The notes under the pieces: model-generated
The model's database searches: none
What the model was told of the DNA's origin: nothing
What the model saw: only the letters and a program-made list of their open reading frames with translations
In this document: in pieces, positions 12,342 to 36,972 of the stretch
Layout of the letters: every line of letters starts with the position of its first letter
Numbering within the stretch: position 1 is the first letter of the stretch
IMG/VR virus record: IMGVR_UViG_3300048915_000098
Location: 1-62,690 of that record
Strand: one strand, 5' to 3'
Length of the DNA stretch: 62,690 nucleotides
DNA from: a virus
Made by a program: the position numbers and the translations under genes

Positions 12342-12623
12342 ATGCAACAAGCTGATTGGGTTGGTGCGCCGACCGCTGCCGTCAAGCCCTTCAAGGACAT
12401 CCGCAACACCCGCGAGAGCGTTGCCGAGGAAAAGGCGCGACTCGTGATGGAACTCGGATGGCTCTTCCGCTCGCCCCCCCCCAGCGTCGTCAACGGATCC
12501 ATCCAAAAGGTGCGGCAGTGGACGGCCGCGCGCGAAGCCGCCCGCAAGGTTGCGGCCAGTGCGCGATCCAGCGCGCACGACCTGCGATCAGCGATCACCA
12601 GCATGCAAGGGTTTGAAGCATGA
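12342..12623 (+). CDS. Hypothetical protein (93 aa)
   Basis: Trimmed to ATG 12342 with an AGGAG RBS (12332..12336). Confidence 0.6.
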   Translation: MQQADWVGAPTAAVKPFKDIRNTRESVAEEKARLVMELGWLFRSPPPSVVNGSIQKVRQWTAAREAARKVAASARSSAHDLRSAITSMQGFEA

Positions 12624-14587
12624 GGGGCCCAATTTCCCGCCCGCGCCAGCGCCCCACATCGGTCGCGAAGGCCGCGCGCCAGTTCATCCTGGGGCTCGAT
12701 GACGGGCTCATCATCGACGAATTCGCCTGCGGCGGCGGCATGTCCGAGGCGATCGAGCAGGCCTTGGGCCGCCACGTCGACCATTCGGTCAACCACGACG
12801 ACGACGCCTGCAGCCTGCACCAGGCGAACCACCCGCAGACGATCCACCACTGCGCGGACGTCTTCGGCCGCGAGGTATCGCCGGCGTCGATCGAGCCCGA
12901 TCGTCCGATCGATCACCTTCACCTGAGCCCGGACTGCACGGACCATTCCCAGGCCAAGGGCGGCCAGCCGCGCTCGGTCAAACGCCGCGGCCTCGCCTGG
13001 ATCGGCGTGCGCTGGGCGGCGCTGCCCGCGTGGCGCCGGCCGAAGGTGATCTCGCTGGAGAACGTGAAGGAGGTCTTGCGCTGGGGCGCCCTGATCGCCA
13101 AGCGTTGCCCGAAGACCGGCCGCGTGGTCAAGGTCGACGGCTCGGTGGCGGCCAAGGGCGAGCGCGTGCCGCGCCGCGAGCAGTACCTGATCCCCGATCC
13201 CGCCCGCGCTGGCCAGACGTGGCAGCGGTTCGTCGGTGCGCTGCGCGCGCTGGGCTACACCGTTGACTGGTGGGCGTTAAACGCGGCCGACTTCGGCACG
13301 CCGACGACGCGCACGCGCCTGTTCATGGTCGCGACCTGTGACGGCATCGCGCCGATCCGCCCGCAGCCGACGCACTTCAAGAACCCGGAGCTGGGCCAGC
13401 AGAAGTGGCGCGCCGCGGCGGAGTGCATCGATTGGTCGATCCCGGCGCGGAGCATCTTCGGGCGCAAGAAGGATCTGGCCGACGCCACCATGCAGCGCAT
13501 CGCGCGCGGCATGTGGAAGTTCGTGCTGGGCCCGGACGCGAAGCCGTTCATTGTCAACAACCTCACGAACAACGTGCCGCGCGGCGTCGACGAGCCGATG
13601 GCGCCGATCCTGACAGGTGGCCACAAGGCTGTCGTCTCCCCCATGATCGCCCCCGTCACGCACAGCGACAAGCGAGTGCACGACGCCAGCGCCCCGCTGC
13701 CCACCATCACCACAGCCAAGGGCGGAGAGTTCGCGCTGGGCGCGGCGACGATCGTCAAGTTCAAGGGCGAGAGCCCGGGCACTGCCGCCTCCGATCCGCT
13801 GGACACCGTCACGGCCAAGGGCCACGGGATGGGGGCGCTCTCTGCCTTCATCGTCCAGGCCGGCCATGGCGAAGGGAAAGGCGCGTCGAAGCGCCGGAGT
13901 TACGGCGTCAATGATCTGGGCGGCCCGGTTGGAACCATCACGGCAAGCGGCGGCGGCCAGTCGATCGCAACCGCCTTCATGCTGCAGGCCAACGGGGGCT
14001 TCAACGATCAGCGCGGCTCGCCCGGCCACGCAGCCGACGAGCCCATGTCGACGATCGGCACGAAGGGCGCCGCCCAGCAGCCAGTCGTCGCGCACATGGT
14101 GCACCTGCACAACAACTGCGACGCGCGCGCGGCCAACGAGCCGCTTCGCACCGTTGGCGCCAGCGGTCAGCACCACGGCGTCGTCGAGTATCGACTCGCC
14201 AAGGAGCACGAGGAGGGCGCGCTGCGCTGCGCGGCGTTCCTGCTGCGCTATCACCGCGACGGCGGGCAGTGGGCCGACCTGCACGAGCCGGCGACGACCA
14301 TCACCACGAAGGATCGCCTGGCGCTGGTCACTGTCTGGTTCCGCGGCGAGCCCTGGGTCATCGTCGATATCTGCCTGCGCATGCTCACGCCGCGCGAGTT
14401 GGCGCGCGCGCAGGGCTTCCCCGACGACTACATCCTTGAGCACGGGCACGACGGCCGCAAGTTCTCCCAGGCCACGCAGGTCTGGATGATCGGAAACAGC
14501 GTTCCGCCGCCGCTCGGACGAGCGGTGATCGCCGCGCAATGGGACGTTCGTCGCCCCGGCGCTGAGCGGTATCGGGAGGCTGCTTGA
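12620..14587 (+). CDS. DNA (cytosine-5) methyltransferase, 655 aa, with an expanded repeat-containing variable region
   Basis: Motif I EFACGGGMS, IV SPDCTDHS, VI SLENV, VIII TRTRLF, then QGFPDDY, and X IGNSVPPPL. About 330 aa lie between motifs VIII and IX. Confidence 0.9.
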   Translation: MRGPISRPRQRPTSVAKAARQFILGLDDGLIIDEFACGGGMSEAIEQALGRHVDHSVNHDDDACSLHQANHPQTIHHCADVFGREVSPASIEPDRPIDHLHLSPDCTDHSQAKGGQPRSVKRRGLAWIGVRWAALPAWRRPKVISLENVKEVLRWGALIAKRCPKTGRVVKVDGSVAAKGERVPRREQYLIPDPARAGQTWQRFVGALRALGYTVDWWALNAADFGTPTTRTRLFMVATCDGIAPIRPQPTHFKNPELGQQKWRAAAECIDWSIPARSIFGRKKDLADATMQRIARGMWKFVLGPDAKPFIVNNLTNNVPRGVDEPMAPILTGGHKAVVSPMIAPVTHSDKRVHDASAPLPTITTAKGGEFALGAATIVKFKGESPGTAASDPLDTVTAKGHGMGALSAFIVQAGHGEGKGASKRRSYGVNDLGGPVGTITASGGGQSIATAFMLQANGGFNDQRGSPGHAADEPMSTIGTKGAAQQPVVAHMVHLHNNCDARAANEPLRTVGASGQHHGVVEYRLAKEHEEGALRCAAFLLRYHRDGGQWADLHEPATTITTKDRLALVTVWFRGEPWVIVDICLRMLTPRELARAQGFPDDYILEHGHDGRKFSQATQVWMIGNSVPPPLGRAVIAAQWDVRRPGAERYREAA

Positions 14588-21653: not shown

Positions 21654-22022
21654 ATGGCATTGAAGCGATCGCACGTCATCGCCGGCACCGTCCTGGCGCT
21701 GCTGGCTTTGGCGTCGCTGGTTCGTGGAGGGGAGACGGGGGCGCGGCCGGAGGCTGCGCAACCCCCGCTTGAACGGTCGGTGGCAGCCGCCGCGGCGCGC
21801 GCGCGGGCTGATCTCCCGATCAATCCGCGCATCCTGAAGGTCGGCGCCAACCAGGTGCAGGTCATCGACATCCCGTCGATGGTCAGCCCGAAGTCTGCTC
21901 TGGTGGAGACGCGCCGCTGCTACGTGTGGCGCGACCTCGAATTCCGTACGGCGTCGGTCACCTGCCCGGAAGATGGTGAGATGCTGCCAGCGGCCGGGCC
22001 TCCGCCCAGCGGCGAGCGCTAG
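21654..22022 (+). CDS. Secreted/membrane-anchored small protein next to attP (122 aa)
   Basis: N-terminal signal/anchor VIAGTVLALLALASLVRG; good codon bias. Converges on the giant gene with overlapping stops. Confidence 0.6.
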   Translation: MALKRSHVIAGTVLALLALASLVRGGETGARPEAAQPPLERSVAAAAARARADLPINPRILKVGANQVQVIDIPSMVSPKSALVETRRCYVWRDLEFRTASVTCPEDGEMLPAAGPPPSGER

Positions 22023-25000
22023 TCTTCGTCCGCCGTCGCCGCGGCCTTCTCGGTCTTGACGGCTTCCCGCTTGCGCTCGGCATCGAGCAGCTCGTTCATC
22101 TTCTCCAGGTCGTCGTCGCTAGCGCGCTGGCTGAAGCGACGGAAGGCACCCGCGCTCAAGCGGGACTCCGGCATCTGCAGGTGTCGCAGCGTGGTCATGA
22201 TCTGCGACGGCGGCATCTTGATGCCCTCGAGGAGCGCGATCGCCTTGTCGTCGTCGCCATCCTTGATGGCCTGCTTGACCTGGGGCATGACGTCCATCTT
22301 CGCGCCTTCGAACTTCCGGTCGGCGGCGTACATCTGGCCGACGGCCGGGCCGCCCGGTGCACCCTTGCTGAATGTCAGGCCGGCAAACGGCCCCACGGTC
22401 TTGAGCTTGTCGACGTCGGTGGCGGTGCCCTTCTTCCAGTCCCAGGCGCCGGCGATCGCGTCGGCCGGGATCATCTGCGTGGCGAACAGCTTGGCGATGC
22501 GGCCGGCGTTCGTCAGCACGCCGCCCAGGCCGGGAGCGTCGGGGTCGTAGATGCGCTGGCCGATGCCGTTGTCGTTGTTCCAGACCTGCTGGAGCGGCCG
22601 CACGAGTTGGCTTTCCTTGGCCTTGGCCGTGACCAGCGGCTTGGTGATCCAGTTCTTGAAGTCCTCGCCGACCTTGCCGGTGGGCAGGCGCATGTAGATC
22701 GCCGTGCCATCGGCCGACGTGCCCACGCGGATCCGGTCTTCCTTGCCGGGCTCGTTCTCCGAGGTCGACGACAGCGCGTTGACGGCGTCGAAGGGGTTGC
22801 TCAGCGTGTCCAGCGGGTGGTCGCCGGCGCGCTTCAGCAACTTGTGCAGGCGCTCGGCATACCCCTGACCGACATCACCCCAGGTCTTCTTGTCCTTCCA
22901 GTGCTCGAAGGCGCTTTGCATCAGGGAGTTGCCGACGTACATCAGGCCGATGTCCAGGATGAACGAGGCGATTGCGATGCGGCGCGCGCGCGAGGTCGCG
23001 GCGGCCGCGGCCAGCTCGCCGGCCGACACCTTGATCTGCGCGCGGACGTCGCGCGGCAGGCCGGTCATCATGTCCTTCATCAGGCCCATGTTGCCCAGGG
23101 TGAAGGTGCGCGAGAACATCAGCAGGTTGGCCGTGCGCCGGGCCGCCACCGACATCGCCTCGTTGGGCAGCGCGCCGGCGAAGCGGTTGGCGAAGTGGGC
23201 GGCGACCTTGCCGGCGGCGGCCGGATCCATCCCCTTGGAGATCTCGTGCTCGCGGATCGAGCCGTACAGTCCCGCCTGCAGGTCACCCACGCGATCCCAC
23301 AGCAGGGTGTTGTGCCAGATGTCGCCGGCCCGGTCGATCGCCTTCTTCGCCGCGGTGCCGGCCTTCTCGCTGGCCAGCCCGAGCGCGCCGCCGATCAGCT
23401 TGGCGGTCCAGCTCCGGCCCGGCGTCAGGCTCGGATCCTCCATGATCCCGGTGATGTCCTGGATCCCGCCGCGCCGGCCAATGGGCACCAGGCCGTCGGA
23501 GATCGCCTGGCGCATCTGCGCCGGGTCGTTCTTGATGCGGTTGCCCTCGAAGTAGATCTGGAACGTCGCTACCTTGCCGGGCATCGCCGGCAGCGCGCGG
23601 CCCCACTCCACCGCGTTGTGGATCAGCGGCGAGTACATGATGAGGCCCATCGACTTGCCCTTGAGCGCCATCAGGGCGTTGTAGATCTCGTTGGGCTTCT
23701 CGGTCATGACGGCCTTCAGCGGCCCCTCGAAGTCCTTGGAGACGTACAGCGGCACCCGCTCGAAGGTCTTCGAGCCATCCTCGTTCGAGGTCACCCGCCA
23801 GGTCTTGAGCGCCGGGCTGTCGAAGGTCACGAAGCCCGGCTCCTCGCTGGTCGACACCGTCTTCATGCCGGCCTTGTCGCCGTAGGCCTTGATCTGGTTG
23901 ACCAGCTCCCGGCCGGCGATCGCGCGCTCGAGCCGGGACATGGCCAGCGGCATGGTGCGGATGTCGCGGACGAGCTGCGCGCCCTCGCCCAACTTGCCCT
24001 TCATGGCGGCCTCGGTGTCCTCGGCGGTCAGGTGCTTGCGGCCCTTGAGGCTGCTCGCCGTCGTGACGATGTTGCGGCCCTGGGTGCCGCTGCCCTCGAC
24101 GTTGCCTCCCTTCGGCCGCGAGTACTCGCCGGCGCCGTCGATCATGACGGCCATCCGCGGCGTCCAGTACGGCAGGCCCTCGCCTTCGAACATCCCGACC
24201 GCCTTGGCGCGCTGCAGGAGCGATTCACCGTAGTTGTGCAGTGCGTCGACGGTGGCGCGTTGGTCCGGGGTCAGGCGGTTCAGGCCCTCGCCGGGCCCGG
24301 GTTCCTTGCCCTGCTGGCGCAGGACGCCCTCTTGGTCGGCCGCCTCCCACATCTCGCGGCGCTGGGCCTCGTCGTAGTTCTTGGCGATGACCGAATCGAA
24401 CTTGTCCCATTGCCAGCGCGCGAGGCGATCGGCGTTGGCGAAGTCCTTGACCAGCGCGCGGGTCTGATCGGTGCCCAGCGCCATGGGCGCGGTGATTCGG
24501 ACTGCCTCGTCGCGCAGCTTGCGGGCCGCGTCGGCAGCCGTGGCCGCGGCTTCGCGCACCTTGCCGAAGACCTCGGCCAGCTTGGATGGTTCGTGGATGT
24601 CCGGAACGTCGCCGGACTCATCGCCGGCGTGCTGACTCAGGAGCGGGGCGTCGCCACCGGCGTCGCTTTGGCGAACGCCTTCTTGCCGAACTCGTTCAGC
24701 ATGCGCTTGTGCTGCCGCAGCGACTCGATTTCGGAGCTCGTCAGCATTCCGGAAGCCAATGAGGTATCCCGCCTCGGCGCCGGTGAGGGCGCGGGGGTCG
24801 ACGTGAAGTTCGTCGCGGACGGTTTGACCATATCGGCTTTCAATCTCGGCGGTTTGTCGCTTCGGCGCAACCATTGTAGGTGCACGGCTGGCGTCTGCCA
24901 AGGTGGCCACCCCTACAACCTCGCCGCCGCCGGCGCGGATGTGATCCGCCAGTTCCGCGAGGGTCCCGCCCATGGTCGTCACATCGTCGACCACGACATA

Positions 25001-28000
25001 CTTGCGGCCCGGCTCGACCTGGCCGCTGAAGTCGGGGCGCGCGACCATCCGCTCCATCGCGTTGGCCCCTGTGTGGAACGCTCGATTCGTCTGGACGATG
25101 TCGGAGTCGACCTCGCCACCTGTCTCTGCGGCGTACTTGTGGGCGAGCATCGCCGGAATCGCGTTGCGTCCGCTTGCCTCCTCGGCGTGGGGATACGCAT
25201 AGACGATTCCCGGGCCAAGCTTTCGTGCAGCTTCGATGTCCTCTGCCTTGACCAGCGCGTTGACCACGCGCACCGCGGCATCGGGGTCGCCAGCCTTCGC
25301 CGCCTTGTAGTCGGGCTGGGCTTTCAGGTCGTCGACCGCAACACCGCCGCCGAGCTCCTTCGCGCCCTCGGGGATTCCCTGCTCACGCACCGGCCGCGAG
25401 GTAGCCGGCACAAGGTCGCCCGCCACCTCGCCTCCGCCGGCGTCCGCCTCGACCGCGCGCCGCGCGCGCGCCAGCAGCGCCGCCGTCTCGGCCTCCGTCA
25501 TCTTCTCCAGTTGGTCGGCGACGCTATGCAGGCCCACGCTGCGCAGCCACTCCTGGATCTTGGCCATGAGCTTCTGCAGCCCGCGGATCGGCTCGCCGCG
25601 GCCGGCGCGGTCGGCCAGCGCCTCCTCGGTGGACAGCGCGCGGACGACCCGCATGGCTGCCTCCTGCGACAGCCCGCGGCTCATGCGGTCGGCGATGGCG
25701 CCGCGGCCGTGGGCTTGCATCCACGCCTCCGCCTCCTTCGCCAACTCCGGATTGGCCTGGCGGAGCTTGTACATCTCGGCGAAGTAGGTGGCGTCCGAGC
25801 CGAGCACCTTGCGGATCCCGTAGTGGCCCAGCACCTCGTGGAACAGCGCGGCCTGCGCCATCGGCACGTCCTTCAGGCGACTGGCGATGAGGTAGACGTC
25901 GCCGGGATCGCTGCCGCGGCCGGGCATCAGCAGCGCGCGGGTCTTGCCCTCGGCGCCCATCGAGCGCAGAGAATCCTGGATGTGGTTCGGCAGGCCGTTG
26001 ACGTCATCGACGACGTGCACCGGAGGCGCGTCCTTCCAGCCGGCTTGGATGCGGGTGACCTCGGCGCGCAGGACATCAGGGGAGACGCCCTTGCGCACTG
26101 GCTCAGTCGACTGCTTCAACCGAATGTCAGCGCTTTCCGGATCGAAGGTGCCGCGGTTGCCGATCGCGCTCTTGACCTGCTCGGGATCGAAGGCGATGAA
26201 AACGCGGTGCTTGGTGCTGTCACCCTTGATGCGGCCGCCGCCGATGTGCGTGATGCCGTCGTAGCCCATCGACCGCAGGCCTTCCTGCATGATTTCGGCG
26301 CCCTCCCACTTGGGCAGGCCTTCGTCGATCAGGTGATCCTCGGCGATCCTGTAGAAGTCCTCATTGGTGTACGTCTCGCCGTTGCGCGGCTTGCGGTCGG
26401 TGTTTTCGAAGTCAACGTCAGGGAAGGCCTTTTGCCACGCAGACAACTCGCGCGTGACAGGCTTGTCCATGTCGATCGGGTTCTTGATCGACAGGTGCAC
26501 CGGGTAAACGGTAGGCGACTTGCCCTTGCCCTTCGTCGTGTAGTCGCTGGCGATCTTCGGGTCAGCGGTGAAGTAGGAGCCCTGGCCGAACAGCCCGTGC
26601 TCGGAGGCATAGGAGTCAAACGCCGAGAAGGCGTCGCCGTCCTCGGTCTTGCTCGTGCCGTGGAACATCACCTGCGGCTCGCCGTGCTCATCGACGACCT
26701 TGCTGTCGCCGAACCACTTCTTGAACTCCGGAGTGCTGGTGGTGCGCCGCGCGAGTTCCGCGCGAGCAACGTCCCGCGCACGCGCGGTGGCAGCGGCGGA
26801 GTCAACGATCTTCGCGAGCTTCTCGTCCGCCCACTGGTCGACCGGCTTTCCGAGCAGCCGCGGCGCAGGCTCGGCCGGCATCAGTGCCGCGTCGGCTCCG
26901 CCTCCAACGTCCACAGCAGCAGGCGCTCGAGCACCGGCTGCAGGTGCGGCGGCATCTCCACCGACTCCTCGTGCTCCGGCGACATCAGCATTCGATCCCA
27001 GATCTCCGCCGCTTGCGACAGCAGGACCACCTCCGCCATCACCGGCTCCAGCAGGTACTCCGGCAGGCTCTGCCACGTCAGGCTGTGCGCGCTCATCGGT
27101 CGGGCTCCATTGCGTGATGTCGCCCAGCGGCTTCGACTTGACGCCGTCGCGCACCCAGGCCTTGAAGGCGTCCATCGGCAGTGGGGTGATCGCGCCCAAG
27201 CCGTTCCACCCGTCGGCGTAGTTCGCGGCGTAGAGCTGGCGCGCCTGCGCCTCGCTGTCGGCGCCCAGGATGGTCTTGGGCTCGTCGAACTTGCCGGTGG
27301 CGGGGTCGACCTGGTCGATGACGTAGGCGATCTTCGATTCGGGATTCGGGCCGATGAAGGTGTCGACGTGATCGCCGTCGTTTGCCCTGGTGCCGCGGAT
27401 AAACCCATAGTGGGCCTGCATCTCGTTCGACCACGGCTTGCCATCCGGATCGACGCCGGACCGCACAGAGCCTTGCGGGTTCTCGATGGTGATGTCCAGC
27501 CCGTGCAGTTGGACGTGGCCCATCGGGTAGTTGCCCGCTGCCTTCTGCGCGTCGGTCGGCTCCGGCCGGTCGTTGAATGGTGACGTGGCGGCCTGGTGCG
27601 CGGCGTCGGCGATGTCGTTCGCCTGCGCCATCGCAGTCGGCGCGATCGGCGCAGGTGCAGCATCCTCGGGGGCGGCTGCATCGTGGGCCGGCGTGGGTTC
27701 CGGCGGCCGGATGGCGGCGAGCTGGTCGGCCACGCTCGACTTTCCCGCCTTCGGTGTCGGCGCGGCCGCGGGCTGCTCCGGCTGTTGCGCGGCGACGCGC
27801 TGAGCCAGCGCGTCCCGGAACGCTCCGGGTGCGCCGGGCTTGGTCGTCAGACCGTTGGCCTCCATGCGGTGGAACGCGCGCGCGACGAAGGTGGCTGCGT
27901 CCTGCGGATCACGCTGGGCGGCAGCCTCGCGCAGCGCGGCGGTTGCCTTCGGGGACAGGCCGACGGTTCGCGCGGCCTCATCGATCGAGTCGTGCAGGGT

Positions 28001-29317
28001 GTCCAGGCCAATCGGCCCGGGTGCCGGCGGCGCGGCCGCAGTCGTGTCGGCTGTCGTGGTCGGCGTCGCATCGGCCGGCGGCGGGTTCGCGCTGTCGATC
28101 TCGCGCGCCGCCGCGGCGTTGCCGTCGCCGTGCGCCAGCGAGTGCGCAGCATGGAACAGGTGGCCGGCGGCCAGCGGCACGCCCGGCACAGCCAGCGTCA
28201 GGAGCGTGGCGGATTTCGCCGTCGCGGCGATGTCGTGCAGCATGTCGTCGGCGGACATGTTCGGCTTGAGGCCGCCCGGCGCCATCTTGTCGTACAGGTC
28301 GCCCAGGACGGTCGTCGCCTCCATCCCGCCCACGTTCGTGGTCAGCGCGTGGCCGAGCGCGGCGATGGCCTGGCCAGCCGGTGCGCCCGACACCGCCTTC
28401 GTCAGCGCGCCGGTCAAGCCTGGAACCTGCGTGCGCAGCCCGACGTAGTTCGCCAACGCCATGGCCGTGCCGCGGCTGACCGCTTCGCCGGGCGAGTCGC
28501 CGGCCTGCCGCGCGTCGGCGTACCCGTCGACGCCGGCCTGCGTGACCATCGCCCCGAGGCCGGCCGGCCCTGCCACCAGCGGCGCGAGACTGAAGACGCC
28601 GGCCACGGTCTTGACCGTGTCGGAATCCTCGTTGCCCTGCATCGCGCGGTTGATGCGCGCGTCGGCGGCGGCCTGGTACTGCCGGCCGAGAGTGCGCAGG
28701 CCTTCGGTGTCGGTGACCTCGCCCGCGGTGGTCATCAGGTTGGCCAGCGTCTTGCCGGCCTGCCCTGCCGCGGCGTTGTAGCCGGCCTGCACCGGGTTCT
28801 GAGGGATGTCGTCCCAGGCCTTGCGGCGCGCGGCCGCCTGGTCGATCGCGACGGCTTCCGTGTGCGGGATCACCGGCTTGGTGACCGGCGCGGGCGGCCC
28901 GACGGGAATACCGCCCGCCGAGGCCGCGTCGATCATGTCGGCATGGGACATCGGCGCAGGTGCAGGGGGCGGCGCGGCCACGGTCGACGTCGCGAATGGG
29001 CTTTCTCCCGCTTCGCTGGAATGCGCGAGCGAGGCCAGCCCGGACTTCACGCTGTCGACGGCGCCGGACGCGGCGTCCGCGACGCTCGCGGCGGCCGACT
29101 TGATCGTGCCCATGACTGAATCGGCGAGCGATGGCGCGGGCGCTGCGGCGGCCGCGGGGGGCGCCGCCTGCCGGCCGCCGTCGATGTTGGCGATCCCGCG
29201 GCCACCGAAGTCCGTCGCGGCGCGCGCGGCGACGTCACCCGGGGTCAGGTCATCGGGAGCGTTCTGGTAGACGTGGCTGGTGCCGTCGGCGAAGGTGACC
29301 GTGATGTTGCGCGGCAT
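22019..29317 (-). CDS. Giant polyvalent virion/ejection protein (2,432 aa)
   Basis: One uninterrupted ORF. Pyrophosphatase-like motif DGDHVDTFIG (27350..27379). ART-like WFGDSKVVDEHGEPQVMFHGT (26654..26716). HEVLGH (25823..25840). PRTase-like VVVDDVTTMGGT (24962..24997). Hydrophobic C-terminal third. Confidence 0.9.
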   Translation of the reverse strand: MPRNITVTFADGTSHVYQNAPDDLTPGDVAARAATDFGGRGIANIDGGRQAAPPAAAAAPAPSLADSVMGTIKSAAASVADAASGAVDSVKSGLASLAHSSEAGESPFATSTVAAPPPAPAPMSHADMIDAASAGGIPVGPPAPVTKPVIPHTEAVAIDQAAARRKAWDDIPQNPVQAGYNAAAGQAGKTLANLMTTAGEVTDTEGLRTLGRQYQAAADARINRAMQGNEDSDTVKTVAGVFSLAPLVAGPAGLGAMVTQAGVDGYADARQAGDSPGEAVSRGTAMALANYVGLRTQVPGLTGALTKAVSGAPAGQAIAALGHALTTNVGGMEATTVLGDLYDKMAPGGLKPNMSADDMLHDIAATAKSATLLTLAVPGVPLAAGHLFHAAHSLAHGDGNAAAAREIDSANPPPADATPTTTADTTAAAPPAPGPIGLDTLHDSIDEAARTVGLSPKATAALREAAAQRDPQDAATFVARAFHRMEANGLTTKPGAPGAFRDALAQRVAAQQPEQPAAAPTPKAGKSSVADQLAAIRPPEPTPAHDAAAPEDAAPAPIAPTAMAQANDIADAAHQAATSPFNDRPEPTDAQKAAGNYPMGHVQLHGLDITIENPQGSVRSGVDPDGKPWSNEMQAHYGFIRGTRANDGDHVDTFIGPNPESKIAYVIDQVDPATGKFDEPKTILGADSEAQARQLYAANYADGWNGLGAITPLPMDAFKAWVRDGVKSKPLGDITQWSPTDERAQPDVAEPAGVPAGAGDGGGGPAVASGGDLGSNADVAGARGVGGDAAAPAAGARAPAAVDVGGGADAALMPAEPAPRLLGKPVDQWADEKLAKIVDSAAATARARDVARAELARRTTSTPEFKKWFGDSKVVDEHGEPQVMFHGTSKTEDGDAFSAFDSYASEHGLFGQGSYFTADPKIASDYTTKGKGKSPTVYPVHLSIKNPIDMDKPVTRELSAWQKAFPDVDFENTDRKPRNGETYTNEDFYRIAEDHLIDEGLPKWEGAEIMQEGLRSMGYDGITHIGGGRIKGDSTKHRVFIAFDPEQVKSAIGNRGTFDPESADIRLKQSTEPVRKGVSPDVLRAEVTRIQAGWKDAPPVHVVDDVNGLPNHIQDSLRSMGAEGKTRALLMPGRGSDPGDVYLIASRLKDVPMAQAALFHEVLGHYGIRKVLGSDATYFAEMYKLRQANPELAKEAEAWMQAHGRGAIADRMSRGLSQEAAMRVVRALSTEEALADRAGRGEPIRGLQKLMAKIQEWLRSVGLHSVADQLEKMTEAETAALLARARRAVEADAGGGEVAGDLVPATSRPVREQGIPEGAKELGGGVAVDDLKAQPDYKAAKAGDPDAAVRVVNALVKAEDIEAARKLGPGIVYAYPHAEEASGRNAIPAMLAHKYAAETGGEVDSDIVQTNRAFHTGANAMERMVARPDFSGQVEPGRKYVVVDDVTTMGGTLAELADHIRAGGGEVVGVATLADASRAPTMVAPKRQTAEIESRYGQTVRDELHVDPRALTGAEAGYLIGFRNADELRNRVAAAAQAHAERVRQEGVRQSDAGGDAPLLSQHAGDESGDVPDIHEPSKLAEVFGKVREAAATAADAARKLRDEAVRITAPMALGTDQTRALVKDFANADRLARWQWDKFDSVIAKNYDEAQRREMWEAADQEGVLRQQGKEPGPGEGLNRLTPDQRATVDALHNYGESLLQRAKAVGMFEGEGLPYWTPRMAVMIDGAGEYSRPKGGNVEGSGTQGRNIVTTASSLKGRKHLTAEDTEAAMKGKLGEGAQLVRDIRTMPLAMSRLERAIAGRELVNQIKAYGDKAGMKTVSTSEEPGFVTFDSPALKTWRVTSNEDGSKTFERVPLYVSKDFEGPLKAVMTEKPNEIYNALMALKGKSMGLIMYSPLIHNAVEWGRALPAMPGKVATFQIYFEGNRIKNDPAQMRQAISDGLVPIGRRGGIQDITGIMEDPSLTPGRSWTAKLIGGALGLASEKAGTAAKKAIDRAGDIWHNTLLWDRVGDLQAGLYGSIREHEISKGMDPAAAGKVAAHFANRFAGALPNEAMSVAARRTANLLMFSRTFTLGNMGLMKDMMTGLPRDVRAQIKVSAGELAAAAATSRARRIAIASFILDIGLMYVGNSLMQSAFEHWKDKKTWGDVGQGYAERLHKLLKRAGDHPLDTLSNPFDAVNALSSTSENEPGKEDRIRVGTSADGTAIYMRLPTGKVGEDFKNWITKPLVTAKAKESQLVRPLQQVWNNDNGIGQRIYDPDAPGLGGVLTNAGRIAKLFATQMIPADAIAGAWDWKKGTATDVDKLKTVGPFAGLTFSKGAPGGPAVGQMYAADRKFEGAKMDVMPQVKQAIKDGDDDKAIALLEGIKMPPSQIMTTLRHLQMPESRLSAGAFRRFSQRASDDDLEKMNELLDAERKREAVKTEKAAATADED

Positions 29318-29320
29318 GGC

Positions 29321-30619
29321 TTACCAGTTCGACACCGAGGGAACGGCTGCGCTGGCGGCCGGCTTGGGCACGAGGCCGGGCGCCGGGCCCGGAGCCGGCG
29401 GCGGCGTACCGGACAAAGCCTGCATCGCCGCGGCTCGCAGGTCGGCATCGCTCTTGTTCATGTTGTGGGGATCCTGGCGGGCAGCCCGTACCAGCCCGTC
29501 GACGCGCTTGGCGTACTCGCCCGATCGCACCGGCTGACCATTGACGGTCGCCCGCTGCATCGAGCCGTCCTTGAAGACGTTGACGACGTAACCGTCTGCG
29601 TCGGTGATGGTCTTTTGCACCTTCTTGGCGCCATCGACCCCGCCGCCGGCGCGGATCCCCGCCGCGTCGACGCGGCCCTGCGCGGTGATCCCCGCAGCCT
29701 CCGTCTCCGCGCCAGCGCGGATGCCGGCCGCGCCGAGGGTGGCCTTGTTGTTGCCTTCGGCGACCTTCTCGCGGCTGGTGTTTTCGAGGCCGATGCCCTG
29801 CAGGTGGAAGCCGCCCTTCACGTTCTCCGTGAGCCGGTCCTGCTCGCCCTTGGCCTGGGCTTCGATCTTCTTGGCGTTCGCCTCCTGGGCAGCCTTGGCC
29901 GCCAACAGGCGCGACTCGTACTCGTACTTCGCCGCGTCGGCCGGATTCATCATCACGTCGTGCGCCATGCTCGCGATCTGATCGCCGGTCAGGGTATGGG
30001 TCTGGCCGTCAGAAGTGGAGATCCTGTAGACGGGCGTGGTCGGCTGCGGCTTGAACTGCGTCGGGTCGTTGCCGGCCGCCACCCAGGCCTGGCGCTGTTG
30101 CTGGATGGCAGGGCTGGCGCCATCCGTGCCGCCCGCCCCGTTGTCCACCGTGATGCCGGTGATGTCGACGCCATCGTGCACCGTCGGATAGACGGTCTGC
30201 GCCAGCGCGGCGCCGTCTCCCGTTGCCTGGTAGTCGGCCAGCGCCTTGCCGATCACCTGCTGGCGGATCTGGTTGCGAATCGGCGCCGTAGCCGCTTCGT
30301 TCTTCGTCCACAGATCGAGGTCGCCGCTCTTGGCAATCGCGTCGCTGCGGGCATGCAGGCCGGCCAGCAGCACGGGTGCCGACATCTGGAACGGCTTGGG
30401 CTGGAACGTCGACGGGTCATTGCCGGCGTCCGTCCACGCCTTCTGCTGCTGGGCGATGTCCTGGTCGTGGGCGTCCTGCAGCGCCTGCGCACCGGCGGCG
30501 TTCGCGTCATTGATGACCTGCAGTTGCTTGTTCTGCATCGCCTGCTGCTTTTGCTGGTCATTCCAGGCGACGCCCTCCTGGTAGCCACGAAGGGCGTTCG
30601 TCAACCCGAGTCCGCTCAT
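29321..30619 (-). CDS. Internal-virion-like protein (432 aa, Gln/Ala/Gly-rich)
   Basis: ORF-track ORF, directly upstream of the giant gene. Internal repeat QKAWTDAGNDPSTFQPKP / RQAWVAAGNDPTQFKPQP. Confidence 0.7.
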   Translation of the reverse strand: MSGLGLTNALRGYQEGVAWNDQQKQQAMQNKQLQVINDANAAGAQALQDAHDQDIAQQQKAWTDAGNDPSTFQPKPFQMSAPVLLAGLHARSDAIAKSGDLDLWTKNEAATAPIRNQIRQQVIGKALADYQATGDGAALAQTVYPTVHDGVDITGITVDNGAGGTDGASPAIQQQRQAWVAAGNDPTQFKPQPTTPVYRISTSDGQTHTLTGDQIASMAHDVMMNPADAAKYEYESRLLAAKAAQEANAKKIEAQAKGEQDRLTENVKGGFHLQGIGLENTSREKVAEGNNKATLGAAGIRAGAETEAAGITAQGRVDAAGIRAGGGVDGAKKVQKTITDADGYVVNVFKDGSMQRATVNGQPVRSGEYAKRVDGLVRAARQDPHNMNKSDADLRAAAMQALSGTPPPAPGPAPGLVPKPAASAAVPSVSNW

Positions 30620-31515
30620 GCTGTTCCTTTCGCGGCGCGGCGCGCCTTGGCCGCGGCGATCTGCTTGCCGAGGCTGTCGATCTGCTTCTTCAGTTCCTGG
30701 ATGGCAGCGATGTGCACGCCGTTGGTGTCGACCGGGTGCGCGCAGTCCAGGCCGCGCTGCATGGCCGCCTGCGTGGCGCCGCGTGTCTTGACCGACTTCG
30801 ACGACTGCGCGATCTGCTGGTCGAGCTGCGACACCAGCCCGGCGTAGCCTTCGGCCCCCTGCACGGTCACGGGCTGCACCATCGGCTGCTGGCGCCTGCG
30901 CTGCTGTTGCTGGGGTCGGAACTGCTGTTGCCCGACGGTCGGAGCCTCTTGCGCGGGGCCGTAGCCCTGAGTGAGCCCAGGTTCCGCACCTTCAGCGTCG
31001 ACGGCAGCCGAGTCCGCTGCAGCCAGGCCGGCCACGTCACCCCCGCCAGCGCTGGCACCGACATCACCGGCCGTCAGGCCCAGGCCGGTGGAGGCGGCCG
31101 ACGAATCAGCGGCCCCGAGCGTCCCGGCAGAACCTCCCATGGCGGTGCCTTCACCACCGGCAGCAAGCCCTCCGCCGCCTGCACCACCAGCACCGCCAGC
31201 GGCCCCGCCCCCACCAAGCGCTGCACCACCCGCCATCGCGCCCGCGACGATGGCCAGTGCATCCCCCGGCTTGCTGGCGATGATGTCGCCCGCCCTGTTG
31301 ACGATCGGGATCTTGCGCACCGGATTGATGGTCTTGTCGACCTTGTCGAACGGCTTCATCACCGTCGACAAGCCGGAGTTGACCTTTTCCGGCAGGACGG
31401 TGCTGGTGAGCTTGGTCGACTTGCCGCCCGTGATCCAGGAGATCGGGTTCAGGTACTTGTCGCCATACCCGCCGATCTTTCCGAGGATCGAGCTGTGATC
31501 GAGCCACTTGGTCAT
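30616..31515 (-). CDS. Internal-virion-like Gly-rich protein (299 aa)
   Basis: ATGA overlap with the next gene. Long GGGGAAGGAGGAGGGG tract. C-terminal helix HIAAIQELKKQIDSL. Confidence 0.7.
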   Translation of the reverse strand: MTKWLDHSSILGKIGGYGDKYLNPISWITGGKSTKLTSTVLPEKVNSGLSTVMKPFDKVDKTINPVRKIPIVNRAGDIIASKPGDALAIVAGAMAGGAALGGGGAAGGAGGAGGGGLAAGGEGTAMGGSAGTLGAADSSAASTGLGLTAGDVGASAGGGDVAGLAAADSAAVDAEGAEPGLTQGYGPAQEAPTVGQQQFRPQQQQRRRQQPMVQPVTVQGAEGYAGLVSQLDQQIAQSSKSVKTRGATQAAMQRGLDCAHPVDTNGVHIAAIQELKKQIDSLGKQIAAAKARRAAKGTA

Positions 31516-32693
31516 GCCAGCGCCGCCAGTTCGCGCTTCATCGCCGCCACCTGCTTGGCGAGCTGTGCGATCGCCTTGCCGTTGACCTCGGACATCGCGC
31601 CCATGTCGATCGCCTTGCCGCGGGGCGCAACCGCATCACCGAACGCTGCATGCACGTCCTCGGCGTAGGGGCCGACGTGGTCGCCGGAATCCTCGACGCC
31701 CTTGTGATACTTCCAGCCGTCTACCGGCATCTTGCCGTTGGTCAGGCCCTCGAGCGCCTTCGGGCCGCTGACCCGGAGCGTGCTGGGCTTGGCCTTGACC
31801 GTCTGCTTGGCGGCCGGCGCGCCGCCGGCGACGAGGCCCTCCAACGCCGCCTTGCCGTCGACGCGCGAGATCTTGGTCTTGGCGGTCTTCGTGGACGTCG
31901 CAGTGCCGCCGTGCATCCCGTACGCCATCGCCCCTGCGCCGATCAGGTCACCGAAGAAGCCCTGATTGGCGGAGGCGGCGCCCTGCTGGAGTTGGTTGAA
32001 TCCAATGAGCCCGTTGACACCGGCACCGAAGGCTGGGGTCGAAGTTGTCAACGGTGCGGCCGTAAGACCCGATGCACCGCTCACGCTTCCTTGCGCGGCT
32101 TGGCCTGAACTTTGCGCCGCGCCAGCCGCCTGGAGGCTGGCCGTCGGCAGGCCGCGGCCGATGTTGACGGCGCTTCCCTGCAGGTTGAGGCCCGTGTTCT
32201 CGACATTCGTGCGCGCGGCATTCGCGGCCCCGGCCTTGGCCGTGGCCTCCTGCAGGTTGAGCGCGTTGTTCAATGCGAGGGCCTTGCCGCTGCCGGCCTG
32301 GACGCCGCCCGCCTGGAGCTGGTCCGCCTGCTGCGCGCGCGCCGTGTCGAACGCGGTGCCGACTTGGCCCTCCGCGGTCTGGGCGGCCTGCTCCTTGCGG
32401 CCGTCGGTGGCGTAGTCGGCCGCCTCGGTGGCGTACTGGCCTTCGAGCGGCTGGAAGTATTTGCGATAGTTCGCGTACTGGTCGGCCGCCTGCTGCGTTT
32501 CCTGCTGCTGCGCCGCGGTGTTGGAGGCGACCTGCTGCTGGAACAGCGGCATGTATTGATCGAGCAGCGCTTTCTGGTCCTGATATTCCTGCTTGCTCAG
32601 GGCGATCTGGTTCAGCGATGCTTGACCAATTTGTGGGTCTGGGGTCGGTGTTTTGACTTTGATGATGCTCTCCTTAGAGGGTGCAACCCTCAT
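31512..32693 (-). CDS. Internal-virion-like Gln-rich protein with an S74-chaperone-like C-terminus (393 aa)
   Basis: Trimmed from the 452-aa ORF. ATG 32693 lacks an obvious RBS, and a strong AAGGAG at 32671..32676 suggests the true start may be a few codons downstream. Confidence 0.65.
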   Translation of the reverse strand: MRVAPSKESIIKVKTPTPDPQIGQASLNQIALSKQEYQDQKALLDQYMPLFQQQVASNTAAQQQETQQAADQYANYRKYFQPLEGQYATEAADYATDGRKEQAAQTAEGQVGTAFDTARAQQADQLQAGGVQAGSGKALALNNALNLQEATAKAGAANAARTNVENTGLNLQGSAVNIGRGLPTASLQAAGAAQSSGQAAQGSVSGASGLTAAPLTTSTPAFGAGVNGLIGFNQLQQGAASANQGFFGDLIGAGAMAYGMHGGTATSTKTAKTKISRVDGKAALEGLVAGGAPAAKQTVKAKPSTLRVSGPKALEGLTNGKMPVDGWKYHKGVEDSGDHVGPYAEDVHAAFGDAVAPRGKAIDMGAMSEVNGKAIAQLAKQVAAMKRELAALA

Positions 32694-33525
32694 GAAGACG
32701 GCGCTTCGCCGCAACGTAGGTTCGATGAGCCTCTTCGGCGGTGTCAAAGGTACCGAGGTTGATTGCCTTACCCCGAACCTTGATGGCTGATTTGAAGCGG
32801 CCACCGTGTGCGTGCGCACCCAGCAACCCGGTGCTGTTGTTTGCCTGGGCGCGCCGCCTGTTCTCCGCATTCACCCGCCGGCTCACGTCACGCAGGTTCG
32901 CCCATCGATTGTTCGATCGGTCAGTGTCCCGGTGGTCGACATCAGCCTTTGGCCACTCGCCTGTGACGATGACCCAGATCAGCCTGTGCGCAGCGTAGGT
33001 CTTCCCGTCGATTTCGACCATGACATAGCCGTGGCTCTTGACGCTTCCGGCGAGTTGCCCTACTTCGACATTGCTGTATTTGGTGGGCTTGCCGGCCCAA
33101 CGCAAAAGACCCGTGCCCGCCTCATACGTGAACAACGCTCGCAGCATTGCTTGCGCAGCGGCCCCATCGCGAGGAATCCTGATCTTCGTTCGGGTATCGC
33201 CATAGGCTTTGAACCTGGCTGCGAGATGGTCTGCCTTCGGGCGATCCTTCAAGTTGACCCAGCGGTTGTCCGCGTGCGTGTCGTTTTCGTGAGTGACCTG
33301 GAACTGCGGCCATCGGCCCGTCATGTACAGCCAAGCCAAGCGATGCACCGCATGCGACTTTCCGTCCACGCACGCATACCTGTAGCCGTCCGTTTCATTG
33401 ACTCGGCCGATCTCATCGCCAACCTTTGTGCGATTCGATAGCGAAATGCGTCGAGTCATCACGCCCGTCTCCGGGTCGTAGTGAACCAGCTCGCGCAGGC
33501 GCTCGGCGCTCAGTTCTTGAGCCAT
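32674..33525 (-). CDS. HNH_3 x2 + AP2 homing endonuclease
   Basis: Two ~110-aa tandem modules ending THENDTHADNRWVNL and VDHRDTDRSNNRWANLRD. C-terminal AP2-like GRFKSAIKVRGKAINLGTFDTAEEAHRTY. Start taken at ATG 33525. Confidence 0.8.
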   Translation of the reverse strand: MAQELSAERLRELVHYDPETGVMTRRISLSNRTKVGDEIGRVNETDGYRYACVDGKSHAVHRLAWLYMTGRWPQFQVTHENDTHADNRWVNLKDRPKADHLAARFKAYGDTRTKIRIPRDGAAAQAMLRALFTYEAGTGLLRWAGKPTKYSNVEVGQLAGSVKSHGYVMVEIDGKTYAAHRLIWVIVTGEWPKADVDHRDTDRSNNRWANLRDVSRRVNAENRRRAQANNSTGLLGAHAHGGRFKSAIKVRGKAINLGTFDTAEEAHRTYVAAKRRLHEGCTL

Positions 33526-33929
33526 CTGCACTCTTCCTTCAACATCCGGTACATCCACCCCGGCTCGTCACCGAACCAGGCCTCAAGGGGAGCCTCGAAT
33601 AGAAAGCCCATCTTCACGAGCGCGCGCTGGGCATCGGTGTTTGACTCGCGCGTTACCGCGGTCAGGCGCTTGCAGCGCCACTCGACGAATGCGATGTGAA
33701 ACACGTTGCGCAGGAACGTGCGCCCGCCCATTGCGTGGGCGCGATCGAACCACACCGAGAATTCGGCTTTGGTGCCAACGGAGATGTCGGAGAACACCGC
33801 TTGCCCGTGAATCCCCTCGGCGCTTGCTGCCGTCAACACCTTGTCGCCTTCCTCGTGGCGGAAATGCCCGCCTAGCTTCTCGCTGGCGTGAAGGAATAGA
33901 GCCGGAGATTGATCGTTCCAGACATACAT
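33510..33929 (-). CDS. GNAT-family N-acetyltransferase-like protein (139 aa)
   Basis: RLTAVTRESNTDAQRALVKMGFLFEA matches the GNAT C-terminal motif pattern (V...N..A..L..K.GF). Confidence 0.55.
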   Translation of the reverse strand: MYVWNDQSPALFLHASEKLGGHFRHEEGDKVLTAASAEGIHGQAVFSDISVGTKAEFSVWFDRAHAMGGRTFLRNVFHIAFVEWRCKRLTAVTRESNTDAQRALVKMGFLFEAPLEAWFGDEPGWMYRMLKEECRWLKN

Positions 33930-35626: not shown

Positions 35627-36972
35627 GAGAGGTCACCGATCTTGACCCGGCAAACGTTGGACGAGTCGTAGACGCGGATCTTGTTGTCCTGCACTTCGGT
35701 GCGCTGGCCACTCGATGCGGTGCGCAGGGTGCCAATCGTGGCCGAGATGGCGTCAAGCTGCGTGACGCTGATCTTCGAGGCGGTCACCTGACCGGCGCCG
35801 ATCTGTGATGCGACGAGCTGATCGCGGATCATCGCGAACGAGAACTCCGCGGTGCCGTTGCCCAGGATTCGCCAGCCCGTCGAGCCTGCGGTGAAGCCGG
35901 TGCTCTGGATGTACTGGCCCACCGCGATAGAGCCCGCGGTCAGCTTTCCGGCGGAGACGTTGGCAATCTTGGCGTCGTCGATCGCGGCCGAGCCGATCAT
36001 CGCGTTGACGATCGCGCCGTTCTGGATCGCCGCGGTGCCGACGGCGATTGCGTTCGCTGCGATCGCGCTTGCCGTCACGGCACCCACCGCGAGCGAGCCG
36101 GCAATGATGCTGCCGGCAATCACATCGGCGCCGTCGACTGCCTTCGTGTAGGCCGTGCCGTTCCAGCGATAGAGCTTGCCGTCGGTGGTGTTGAAGATCG
36201 TCTTGGTGACCAGCGTCGACGGCACCGAGGAGACGACCGAGACGGGTTCCACGCCGGCCGCGAACTTGGTGGCGTCCACAGAGTTCGCGCCCAGCTTGGC
36301 CAGCGTCACCGCGCCGTTGGCAAGATTGCCTGCCAAGACAACGAGCGGCCCGAGGTCGGCGCTGCCTACCTTTCCGGTGGTGGCCGACACGCCGTTGGTC
36401 CCGCCAGTGGGGCCAGCGCCGTCGACCTGCCGCACGCCGTCGACCGTGACCGCTCCAGCCCAGAAGTGCGTCTCCTGACCGGTCTGCGCGGGGATGATGG
36501 CGATCGTCGCGGCGCCAGTGACCTGGTAGACCTCGACGGCGTCGGCGAACGTGGGCAGCGGGCCGGTGCCGGAATAGTTTGCCGCGTAGATCTGCGTATA
36601 GGCGTTGCCGTGGCCCTGCGTGTAGGCCGGCGCGTCGAACTCGACGAAGAAGTTCGTCAGGCCGGGCGTGACCGTCAGCCCCGTGATCGAGTCGGGTGCC
36701 GAAAGGTCTGGCGTGCTTCCGCCGCCGCTGACACCAGAACCACCGCCGGCCAGCGTACCGACGCCGAACGATCCGCCGGTTCGGTACTCCAGGACGTTGA
36801 GCCCAACGAGCTCGCCGCGGGTGACGAACTTCTGCAGCGAGTCGCCCTTGGCAATCGGCTCGCGCGTCATGGCCTGCGTGCGCAGGTTCTGCAACCACTC
36901 GATGACCTGGTCGAGCGATGCCCCCGTGGGGAGTTCCGGCAGATCGGGAACGACCGGCGGCGTGCGGCTCAC
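35623..36972 (-). CDS. Tail fibre / host-specificity (J C-terminal-like) protein (449 aa)
   Basis: FN3-like ITGLTVTPGLTNFFVEFDAPAY...YTQIYAANYSG, then DGKLYRWNGTAYTK and repetitive AGSI(A/I)VG... segments. Confidence 0.7.
   Translation of the reverse strand: MSRTPPVVPDLPELPTGASLDQVIEWLQNLRTQAMTREPIAKGDSLQKFVTRGELVGLNVLEYRTGGSFGVGTLAGGGSGVSGGGSTPDLSAPDSITGLTVTPGLTNFFVEFDAPAYTQGHGNAYTQIYAANYSGTGPLPTFADAVEVYQVTGAATIAIIPAQTGQETHFWAGAVTVDGVRQVDGAGPTGGTNGVSATTGKVGSADLGPLVVLAGNLANGAVTLAKLGANSVDATKFAAGVEPVSVVSSVPSTLVTKTIFNTTDGKLYRWNGTAYTKAVDGADVIAGSIIAGSLAVGAVTASAIAANAIAVGTAAIQNGAIVNAMIGSAAIDDAKIANVSAGKLTAGSIAVGQYIQSTGFTAGSTGWRILGNGTAEFSFAMIRDQLVASQIGAGQVTASKISVTQLDAISATIGTLRTASSGQRTEVQDNKIRVYDSSNVCRVKIGDLS

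Follow-up and report, generated by a model that had tools for sequence, protein, structure and literature searches.

The viral record IMGVR_UViG_3300048915_000098 of IMG/VR comprises 62,690 nucleotides, all of which were analysed here (hereafter, the window). Its giant gene, the subject of this report, reads from an ATG without interruption through 2,432 codons on the minus strand (22019-29317) and stands last in a minus-strand virion operon that runs through terminase, portal, capsid and adaptor. The protein it encodes strings together an Ala/Pro-rich N-terminal region, a pyrophosphatase (InPase) module, an ADP-ribosyltransferase (ART) module, a probable metallopeptidase module built around the motif HExxxH, a type-I phosphoribosyltransferase (PRTase) module and a mostly helical C-terminal tail of about 840 amino acids (aa). 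Chains of this kind have been described as phage-type polyvalent proteins (Iyer, Burroughs, Anand, de Souza & Aravind 2017, J Bacteriol, PMC5512222) and we put at about 0.75 our confidence in an overall model in which the present one is stored in the capsid and exits together with the DNA. A sequence-only reading of the window, made by a model without database searches, had singled out the same uninterrupted open reading frame (ORF), without giving its strand, as a polyvalent virion-operon protein built of enzyme modules, and in this core it was right.

A giant gene at the end of the virion operon

Directly upstream of the giant gene, whose place at the distal end of the operon was as the earlier reading had it, lie three genes for Ala/Gly/Gln-rich proteins of 452, 299 and 432 aa (31512-32870, 30616-31515 and 29321-30619, all minus strand). 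Their composition (A 17-18%, G 10-17%, Q 7-9%) is the Gln/Gly/Ala richness that had been noticed before; the first of them (31512-32870) matches phrog_8003, ‘virion structural protein’, and all three are putative internal or ejection proteins transcribed together with the giant gene, whose ATG starts 3 nt past the stop codon of its neighbour. Operon position and synteny are shown directly: three related loci (L001-L003) have the same order of an adaptor, several unknown genes, three genes of ~400, 300 and 400 aa, and then the giant gene. The 2,432-aa protein contains no cysteine; two of the three upstream proteins contain one each and the third none.

High-GC DNA yields long spurious ORFs, and the window holds a further one of 1,800 aa on the plus strand (22181-27583) that overlaps the giant gene, so that fused genes, an assembly chimera or a chance GC-rich ORF have to be weighed as the source of so long a frame. 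GC content at third codon positions (GC3) is nevertheless uniform, at 0.73-0.98 per 200-codon block across the giant frame with codon position 2 at ~0.45-0.64; the curated domains all fall in one frame; the contig closes on itself through a 121-bp overlap; and contigs obtained independently, from JGI, ENA, NCBI and Logan, carry homologues of 2,362-2,778 aa. These homologues of similar length rule out the merger of genes that the sequence-only reading had named as its own possible undoing, and an artefact of any kind is given next to no weight. Because all coding evidence (GC3 and domain matches) lies in the minus-strand frame, the 1,800-aa ORF is read as a shadow of GC-rich coding DNA and not as a gene. 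Within the giant gene the GC3 minima (0.73-0.74) fall in the blocks that hold InPase (aa 601-800, 27518-26919) and PRTase (aa 1401-1600, 25118-24519), with 0.85-0.98 in the other blocks and 0.93-0.98 in the tail, a mosaic consistent with cassettes of outside origin. A megablast search of the gene against phage records found no match.

Three enzyme modules with curated profiles

InPase and the region preceding it span aa 446-732 (27122-27982, minus strand). The Pfam core, at aa 589-722 (27152-27553, minus strand), matches positions 1-134 of the 135 in PF18823 with E 1e-53 and 181.3 bits, against a cut-off of 26.8, and its acidic residues E612, D647, D652, D678 and E679 show conservation of at least 90% across 43 homologues; a profile match above the curated cut-off thus coincides with conserved acidic metal ligands, as expected of an InPase. 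A match to the C-terminal extension of the portal protein gp19 (PDB 9b41_L) covers the whole of aa 446-732, so the pre-InPase region accompanies InPase there as well. A Gly/Ala-rich linker follows (aa 733-859, 26741-27121, minus strand; A 26% and G 16%, computed on aa 731-859), in which, near aa 810, lies the left edge of a cassette exchange described below.

The ART-PolyVal module (aa 860-1066, 26120-26740, minus strand) matches PF18760 over positions 1-140 of 140 (E 9.4e-21, 75.5 bits against a cut-off of 31.2). As judged from the alignment, H886, Y915 and D1020 take up the H-Y-D configuration of the ART-PolyVal clade, in which His belongs to strand 1, Tyr to strand 2 and Asp to strand 5, and profile and residues together assign the module to it; H886 and D1020 are invariant in seven aligned ARTs, and the position of Y915 is F, W or H in some relatives. 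The PRTase module (aa 1311-1556, 24650-25387, minus strand) passes PF00156 marginally (27.1 bits against 26.3), matches phrog_22413 at E 1.9e-56 over aa 1330-1542 and weakly matches solved PRTases when compared with the Protein Data Bank (PDB) by phmmer. Together with the profile match, it is the canonical phosphoribosyl pyrophosphate (PRPP) loop VVVDDVTTMGGT at aa 1441-1452, made up of four hydrophobic residues, DD and T/S-G-x-T, that marks the module as type I; D1444, D1445 and 39 further columns reach 90% conservation or more across 17 homologues.

Pyrophosphatase, polyvalent-type ART and type-I PRTase had each been proposed from motifs in the sequence-only reading, and each is now backed by a curated profile. 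Every peptide that it quoted is present: for the pyrophosphatase AGNYPMGHV (aa 594), IENPQGSVRSG (aa 611) and DGDHVDTFIG (aa 647), for ART FKKWFGDSKVV...FHGT (aa 865) and GSYFT (aa 913), for the metallopeptidase ALFHEVLGHYG (aa 1157), and for PRTase KYVVVDDVTTMGG (aa 1439). The identities and catalytic residues of these three profile-backed modules are shown directly. The median identity of the conserved enzyme modules is 31-49% and, since the signature residues of InPase, ART, PRTase and HExxxH are intact and conserved, selection on catalysis is indicated.

A probable zincin-like peptidase

Between ART and PRTase lies a module (aa 1067-1310, 25388-26119, minus strand) that is probably a zincin-like metallopeptidase, with H1160, E1161, H1165 and a distal E1231 as its predicted ligands and catalytic residue. 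It had been introduced as an HExxH peptidase; the motif is in fact H1160-E-V-L-G-H1165, that is HExxxH, and the pattern HE..H occurs nowhere in the protein. What holds of the claim is the conservation of H, E, H and the distal Glu. A profile of the module has 31 members among the 286 relatives collected for module comparisons, and eight of its columns are at least 90% identical, among them those of both His, of the Glu, of the Gly that follows the motif and of E1231, which lies ~70 residues downstream; in two of the 31 homologues a canonical HExxH stands at the motif position. As predicted from the alignment, this is the layout of a zincin with its third ligand Glu on the following helix. The call of zincin-like is made because of this ligand conservation and because an HEXXXH clade of metallopeptidases has been described in polyvalent proteins (PMC5512222).

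Profile searches added nothing to it. Pfam gave no match to the module even at E<=10 on six members, PDB sequences gave nothing significant, and alignment by hhalign to the HEWFH-type peptidase segments of distant relatives had a probability of 0.1%. A database search with the HExxxH alignment returned nothing, known relatives included, and is uninformative. A match to 3-hydroxyacyl-CoA dehydrogenase (E 0.014) was disregarded, as it covers only a helical stretch outside the motif.

The two ends of the protein

The protein opens with a tag (aa 1-95, MPRNITVTFADGTSHVYQNAPDD; 29033-29317, minus strand) within an Ala/Pro-rich region (aa 1-445, 27983-29317, minus strand) that matches no family and has two moderately hydrophobic segments (aa 240-258 and 370-390). 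Over aa 1-585, the extent that had been assigned to Ala/Pro-rich sequence, A makes up 24% and P 10%, and hydropathy peaks at aa 240 and 370. P0036, a relative with otherwise different cargo and an LPD38 domain, opens with the same first ~60-95 residues, and the tag is 37% identical (E 8e-14) to the start of a 607-aa protein in phage record MW202710, encoded two genes downstream of a match to phrog_4287, ‘DNA ejection protein’. When the N-terminal 585 aa were compared by tblastn with phage records (50,697 in the database), a 43-residue tag was the sole match. Conservation of the region is limited to the closest relatives, P0001-P0008, regardless of the type of tail at the other end; that it belongs to the widespread tail family was rejected, as only the nearest relatives have it.

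The tail itself (aa 1590-2432, 22022-24550, minus strand) is a mostly alpha-helical module and a putative carrier. A profile built from six tails, searched against 1.84 billion representatives, retrieved at least 745 clusters (50% identity) at E<=1e-3, 521 of them with E<=1e-30, and in almost every protein among the matches listed the tail is at or near the C-terminus. Members in the collection measure 806-4,853 aa, with a median of 1,396; forms of ~850 aa consist of little beyond the module, and the commonest form (~1,100-1,400 aa) carries none of the four enzyme modules. Their source names are all ‘hypothetical protein’. No Pfam or PHROG model matches the tail of the query or of ten short members, no NCBIfam model matches the query tail, and tblastn of the C-terminal 873 aa against the phage records found no match; the LPD38-type tail of the sister protein P0007, in contrast, matches 86 of these records (Bcep22-like, Ralstonia, Vibrio, Bacillus and Pelagibacter). 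Among 185,579 species genomes scanned by pattern, the tail turned up at eight loci, seven of them in Alphaproteobacteria or in metagenome-assembled genomes (MAGs) assigned there (Xanthobacteraceae, Rhodospirillales, Rhizobiales, Azospirillum, Bradyrhizobium); the eighth lies in an unclassified Proteobacteria MAG. A tail-family protein with 44% identity is encoded on the complete 36,097-bp plasmid pTA1.3 of Azospirillum sp. B2RO_4 (L010, NZ_CP118493.1), a replicon that could be a phage-plasmid, or else a phage genome in circularised form.

An AlphaFold model of the tail from a 65-sequence alignment, which replaced an unusable one from six sequences (pLDDT 49), reached pLDDT 81 and pTM 0.78 and is mostly helical. 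Compared with the PDB by Foldseek it found no fold match (best E 0.8, TM<=0.17), and the helical-bundle and transporter entries that came up were rejected as homologues because they lie at chance level. Against BFVD it found 61 matches at E<=1e-3 (best E 1e-14), the top ones with TM 0.4-0.5 over roughly 800-1,000 columns at 10-15% identity. The named targets are uncharacterised or named for LPD, ART-PolyVal, Zeta-toxin, RelA/SpoT or helicase domains, and most are non-first pieces of split entries, which we take to be the C-terminal parts of phage polyvalent proteins. The structural check proposed by the sequence-only reading, applied to the tail, thus found pieces of polyvalent proteins in BFVD and no fold in the PDB. 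As modelled, the tail is a fold-level relative of polyvalent-protein tails; it is a separate sequence family, because sequence profiles cannot connect it to LPD38 or PLxRFG tails. The query gives no match to LPD38 (PF18857) even at E<=1, and none at E<=0.1 to the PLxRFG ‘tail-700’ model (NF032893), on which the Comamonas antarctica protein P0016 scores 762 bits.

That the C-terminal region forms a large module, of ~840 aa, agrees with the earlier description; the hydrophobic, membrane-like character ascribed to it is weak. A single segment reaches a Kyte-Doolittle value of 1.6 and sits inside a 40-residue helix of the model (H512-551), whose blocks of 10 residues have mean pLDDT 86-94, and insertion of the tail into a membrane is not supported by one marginal segment within so confidently modelled a helix.

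A tail found most commonly without these enzymes raises the question of whether the whole protein is essentially a structural core or ejection-conduit protein, like the largest ejection protein of T7- or P22-like phages, its enzyme modules being vestigial or mere bulk. The position of the giant gene after ejection-protein-like genes fits such a role, as do the occurrence of its N-terminal tag near the ‘DNA ejection protein’ match of MW202710 and the proposal that phi24B gp47 forms a trans-periplasmic conduit (bioRxiv 10.64898/2026.04.10.717836). Yet the protein has no fold similarity to solved ejection proteins and no clear membrane segments, and the signature residues of InPase, ART and PRTase, with HExxxH, are intact and conserved at the median identities given above. 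Because active-site residues are conserved, a purely structural role is improbable, and we favour a packaged protein whose enzymes work.

Cassette exchange among relatives

Comparison with the 286 relatives, and mapping of 36 homologues by BLAST, shows the middle of the protein being exchanged piece by piece. P0001, the nearest relative, shares 88% identity overall and is almost the same on either flank, yet has no ART; between ~aa 810 and 1067 it carries unrelated sequence, an exchanged cassette. P0002, P0003, P0004 and P0006 match aa 1-863 (P0004 only aa 1-751) and again from ~aa 1067-1076 onward, with other sequence in the ART slot, and P0006 diverges once more past aa 1292 and has no PRTase match. 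Because it is absent from these four and from a relative as close as P0001, ART behaves as a swappable cassette. P0005 has ART and HExxxH and lacks PRTase. The exchange reaches the tail as well: in P0007 and P0008 the N-terminus, InPase, HExxxH and PRTase are retained and an LPD38-type tail takes the place of the present one, which suggests that the two tails are functionally equivalent, and P0009, P0010 and P0011 match the query in the tail only, with Zeta toxin and DdrB-ParB as cargo in P0009 and a lytic transglycosylase in P0011. Both the exchange of cassettes and the interchange of two tails are seen directly in these alignments.

The exact set of four enzyme modules occurs in none of the 286 relatives. 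The sequence-only reading had not recognised the combination as described, which holds for the set as such; the four enzyme types had all been described before (PMC5512222).

Junctions between modules carry a recurrent motif. In the query the sites are IRLKQS at about aa 1065, ATSRP at about aa 1305 and PLLSQH at about aa 1559, the last within a junction of aa 1557-1589 (24551-24649, minus strand) that contains APLLSQH; P-[LA]-L-S-Q-[HR] recurs at module boundaries in the near relatives P0002, P0004, P0005, P0007 and P0008, with looser forms such as FSR and IRFxR. The loose pattern [LFAM][LFA]S[QR] occurs 75 times in the query and 36 homologues, against 45 expected from shuffles. These motifs could be recombination junctions, cleavage sites or both.

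Independent exchange bears on whether the enzymes form one coupled, injected pathway that makes or destroys a signalling or defence nucleotide. In such a scheme PRTase would use PRPP and release pyrophosphate (PPi), InPase would remove the PPi and so pull the reaction, and ART would supply or consume a moiety derived from NAD+. The idea is chemically attractive because the PRTase reaction releases PPi (PMC5512222), and InPase lies in the same chain; moreover, ART, HExxxH and PRTase are contiguous in the distant P0016, and the pairing of HExxxH with PRTase recurs in P0002-P0004, P0007, P0008, P0012 and P0043. It is weakened because modules are gained and lost independently, ART being absent from P0001-P0004 and P0006 and PRTase from P0005, while no relative unites all four; nor can the substrate be inferred from sequence. 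We therefore regard the coupled pathway as unlikely, and prefer separate effectors carried by a packaged protein.

Genome context and phage group

Ahead of the genes already described, the operon comprises, all on the minus strand, the large terminase (52495-54060), the portal (50283-52481), the major capsid protein (47842-49137), tail-fibre-like genes, an SU10-type adaptor (39266-39949) and an ‘internal virion protein’ (36969-38585). Past the giant gene, immediately next to it on the opposite strand, a tyrosine integrase is encoded. Positions 1-121 of the window are repeated exactly at 62570-62690, and from this 121-bp direct repeat it follows that the assembly is circularly closed at ~62.6 kb (about 62,569 bp); the contig is most likely the complete genome of a temperate podophage. 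By portal, the closest cultured phage is Achromobacter phage CF418P1 (39% identity); the portals of phi24B/933W-type Stx phages are 33.5% identical, and Burkholderia, Ralstonia and Pseudomonas phage records also match.

Such a neighbourhood is relevant to another possibility, that the protein is a late cytoplasmic polyprotein that stays unpackaged, for example conditioning the cell or processing virion proteins during assembly. Some polyvalent-protein peptidases, such as that of P1 DdrB, do act before packaging (Iyer et al., PMC5512222). The tight coupling of the giant gene to the structural operon, in the position held by virion-proven giants in related podophages, speaks against it, as do InPase domains fused to portal proteins, and we consider a protein that stays outside the virion very improbable compared with one packed into the head.

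Several other genes of the window were noted. An HNH endonuclease (phrog_99, E 4e-81) and a GNAT acetyltransferase (phrog_4470) are encoded at 32674-33558 and 33510-33929 on the minus strand, in ORFs that overlap by ~50 nt and lie in the structural operon between the tail and the ejection-like genes; L001 also has a GNAT at the corresponding position. The tail-fibre-like protein at 45049-46371 (minus strand) contains an Mtd_N domain (major tropism determinant N-terminal, E 1e-14), and among the genes scanned there is no reverse transcriptase and so no sign of a diversity-generating retroelement, although no search was aimed at one. The early region encodes a 655-aa DNA methyltransferase (12620-14587, plus strand; phrog_116, E 3e-87). 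The related genome L001 has a DNA methylase and a PAPS-reductase-like gene, as in Bcep22-like phages, and a PAPS_reductase domain is reported in JC1 gp65 (PMC9144972). No tRNA genes were found in the window.

Proposed packaging, ejection and early action

The functional proposals that follow are made because of the polyvalent-protein survey of Iyer et al. (PMC5512222) and virion proteomics of related phages, and it is by analogy with these that we infer packaging, ejection, self-cleavage and targets. In the proposed scheme the C-terminal helical module of ~840 aa, possibly with the N-terminal tag, would be the structural carrier that docks the protein inside the head, a space it would share with the three small Ala/Gly/Gln-rich proteins encoded upstream. 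A carrier role is suggested because the tail is C-terminal across proteins of 806-4,853 aa, because module-only forms of ~850 aa exist, because the tail is swapped in P0007/P0008 and because Foldseek links it to polyvalent-protein tails. The middle of the chain would be a string of exchangeable effector cassettes. On infection the giant protein would be ejected into the cell. There the HExxxH module probably cleaves either the chain itself, at the junctions between modules, or host proteins, and InPase, ART and PRTase would find their targets in the first minutes among host proteins and the pools of nucleotides, NAD+ or PRPP, so as to blunt defence or prime phage gene expression.

The estimate of about 0.75 is kept down by several observations. 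Packaging is argued by analogy; the tail family is absent from the 50,697 phage records and has no virion-detected member. The PRTase barely clears its Pfam cut-off, and the peptidase assignment is drawn from a motif and its conservation in a module that no profile recognises. The tail (aa 1590-2432 compared) has no fold match to solved ejection proteins or other PDB entries, and hhalign gave it a probability of 1.3-1.8% against LPD38-type tails, with no sequence-level link, and 0.5% against the PLxRFG-type tail, neither being significant whether compared at full length or over the last 400 aa in greedy mode; the LPD38 type of the BFVD targets is taken from UniProt names only. Convincing transmembrane segments, by which the protein might cross the envelope, are absent.

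One might go further and suppose that the tail is a third carrier beside LPD38 and PLxRFG, so far confined to uncultured podophages and alphaproteobacterial prophage-like loci (MAGs and genomes); that effector cassettes are inserted at conserved P-L-L-S-Q-H-like junctions, which double as cleavage sites of the HExxxH peptidase; and that PRTase, InPase and ART are released as a coupled nucleotide-modifying unit that disarms nucleotide- or NAD+-based defence. Taken jointly, these suppositions are speculative, and we doubt that all of them hold.

Polyvalent proteins are thought to be the toolkit of a phage in its first minutes, delivered before phage gene expression, and almost none has been tested biochemically. 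The window catches cassette exchange at a very recent stage, with an ART that is absent from an 88%-identical relative, and shows one and the same cargo joined to either of two tails between which there is no sequence relationship. In the annotation pipelines now used for phages the tail family, with its at least 745 clusters, goes only by ‘hypothetical’; a profile of it would allow giant effector genes to be spotted in metagenomic phages and their packing and ejection to be studied.

Comparison with known systems

Three large proteins of other podophages, T7 gp16, N4 virion RNA polymerase and P22 gp16, are kept in the head and travel with the DNA into the cell; they are functional analogues of the giant protein. 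Solved ejection proteins (e.g. T7 gp14/15/16 and P22 gp7/20/16) show no sequence similarity to it, phmmer against the PDB returning only the portal InPase extension and PRTases. The virion RNA polymerase of N4 is counted among the polyvalent proteins by Iyer et al. (PMC5512222).

Bcep22 gp75, which the sequence-only reading had offered for comparison, was an apt choice for gene position and phage group. Like this protein and its JC1 homologue gp69 (‘DarB-like’, Lessievirus), which has been detected in purified virions by mass spectrometry (PMC9144972), the 2,432-aa protein comes from a giant (near-)last gene of the virion module in a temperate podophage of the same portal lineage, and consists of modular cargo followed by a C-terminal tail. 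It differs in that the Lessievirus proteins, of ~4,500 aa, carry a lytic transglycosylase, a COG4646 methylase/helicase, LPD3 and LPD38 (PMC9144972), none of which was detected here, and its tail has no tblastn similarity to theirs. A DarB-like antirestriction protein of the kind of P1 DarB or Bcep22 gp75 was considered and rejected, as Pfam matches to a COG4646-type methyltransferase/helicase are lacking; the sole PHROG ‘DarB-like’ match covers the InPase region only (aa 434-745).

The Stx phage phi24B, related by its portal (33.5% identity), has in gp47 a protein of 2,811 aa that differs in its LPD5, LPD1 and MuF-C peptidase domains and its LPD38 tail. Mass spectrometry detected gp47 in purified virions, where it is invisible in the cryo-EM map, and it is proposed to be an ejection protein and to form a conduit (bioRxiv 10.64898/2026.04.10.717836). 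The 2,684-aa protein of Achromobacter phage CF418P1 (WNO49116.1) occupies the same gene position and has an InPase 51% identical to the one described here; it differs in carrying LPD3 and an LPD38 tail, and neither ART nor PRTase was detected in it. This protein (OQ817832.1, L012 8822-16876) is annotated ‘putative portal’ and is actually an InPase, LPD3 and LPD38 polyvalent protein, a mislabel that probably stems from portal-InPase fusions such as gp19 of PDB 9b41. In P0016 of Comamonas antarctica (3,630 aa, ‘PLxRFG domain-containing protein’), contiguous ART, HExxxH and PRTase modules align with 32% identity over 720 columns; the chain differs in ending in the ‘tail-700’ PLxRFG domain (NF032893, E 6.5e-229), which has no match here.

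Set against the class as a whole, the protein has what characterises the polyvalent proteins of Iyer et al.: unrelated enzyme domains, namely InPase, ART-PolyVal and PRTase with a conserved HExxxH, bring two or more disparate activities into one polypeptide; its gene lies among virion genes, as do those of L001-L003; and its domains are shuffled combinatorially. The published inventory already lists an InPase clade without the beta-hairpin, the H-Y-D ART clade, PRTase, and metallopeptidases including HEXXXH forms (PMC5512222), so that the concept and all four enzyme types have been on record since 2017, and new combinations are routine for the class. It departs from those proteins in an exact combination that none of the 286 relatives shares and in a tail family with no LPD or other profile model. 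What is new is this four-module combination, the large unmodelled tail family and the very recent swapping of cassettes, by which the existing polyvalent concept is extended, not changed.

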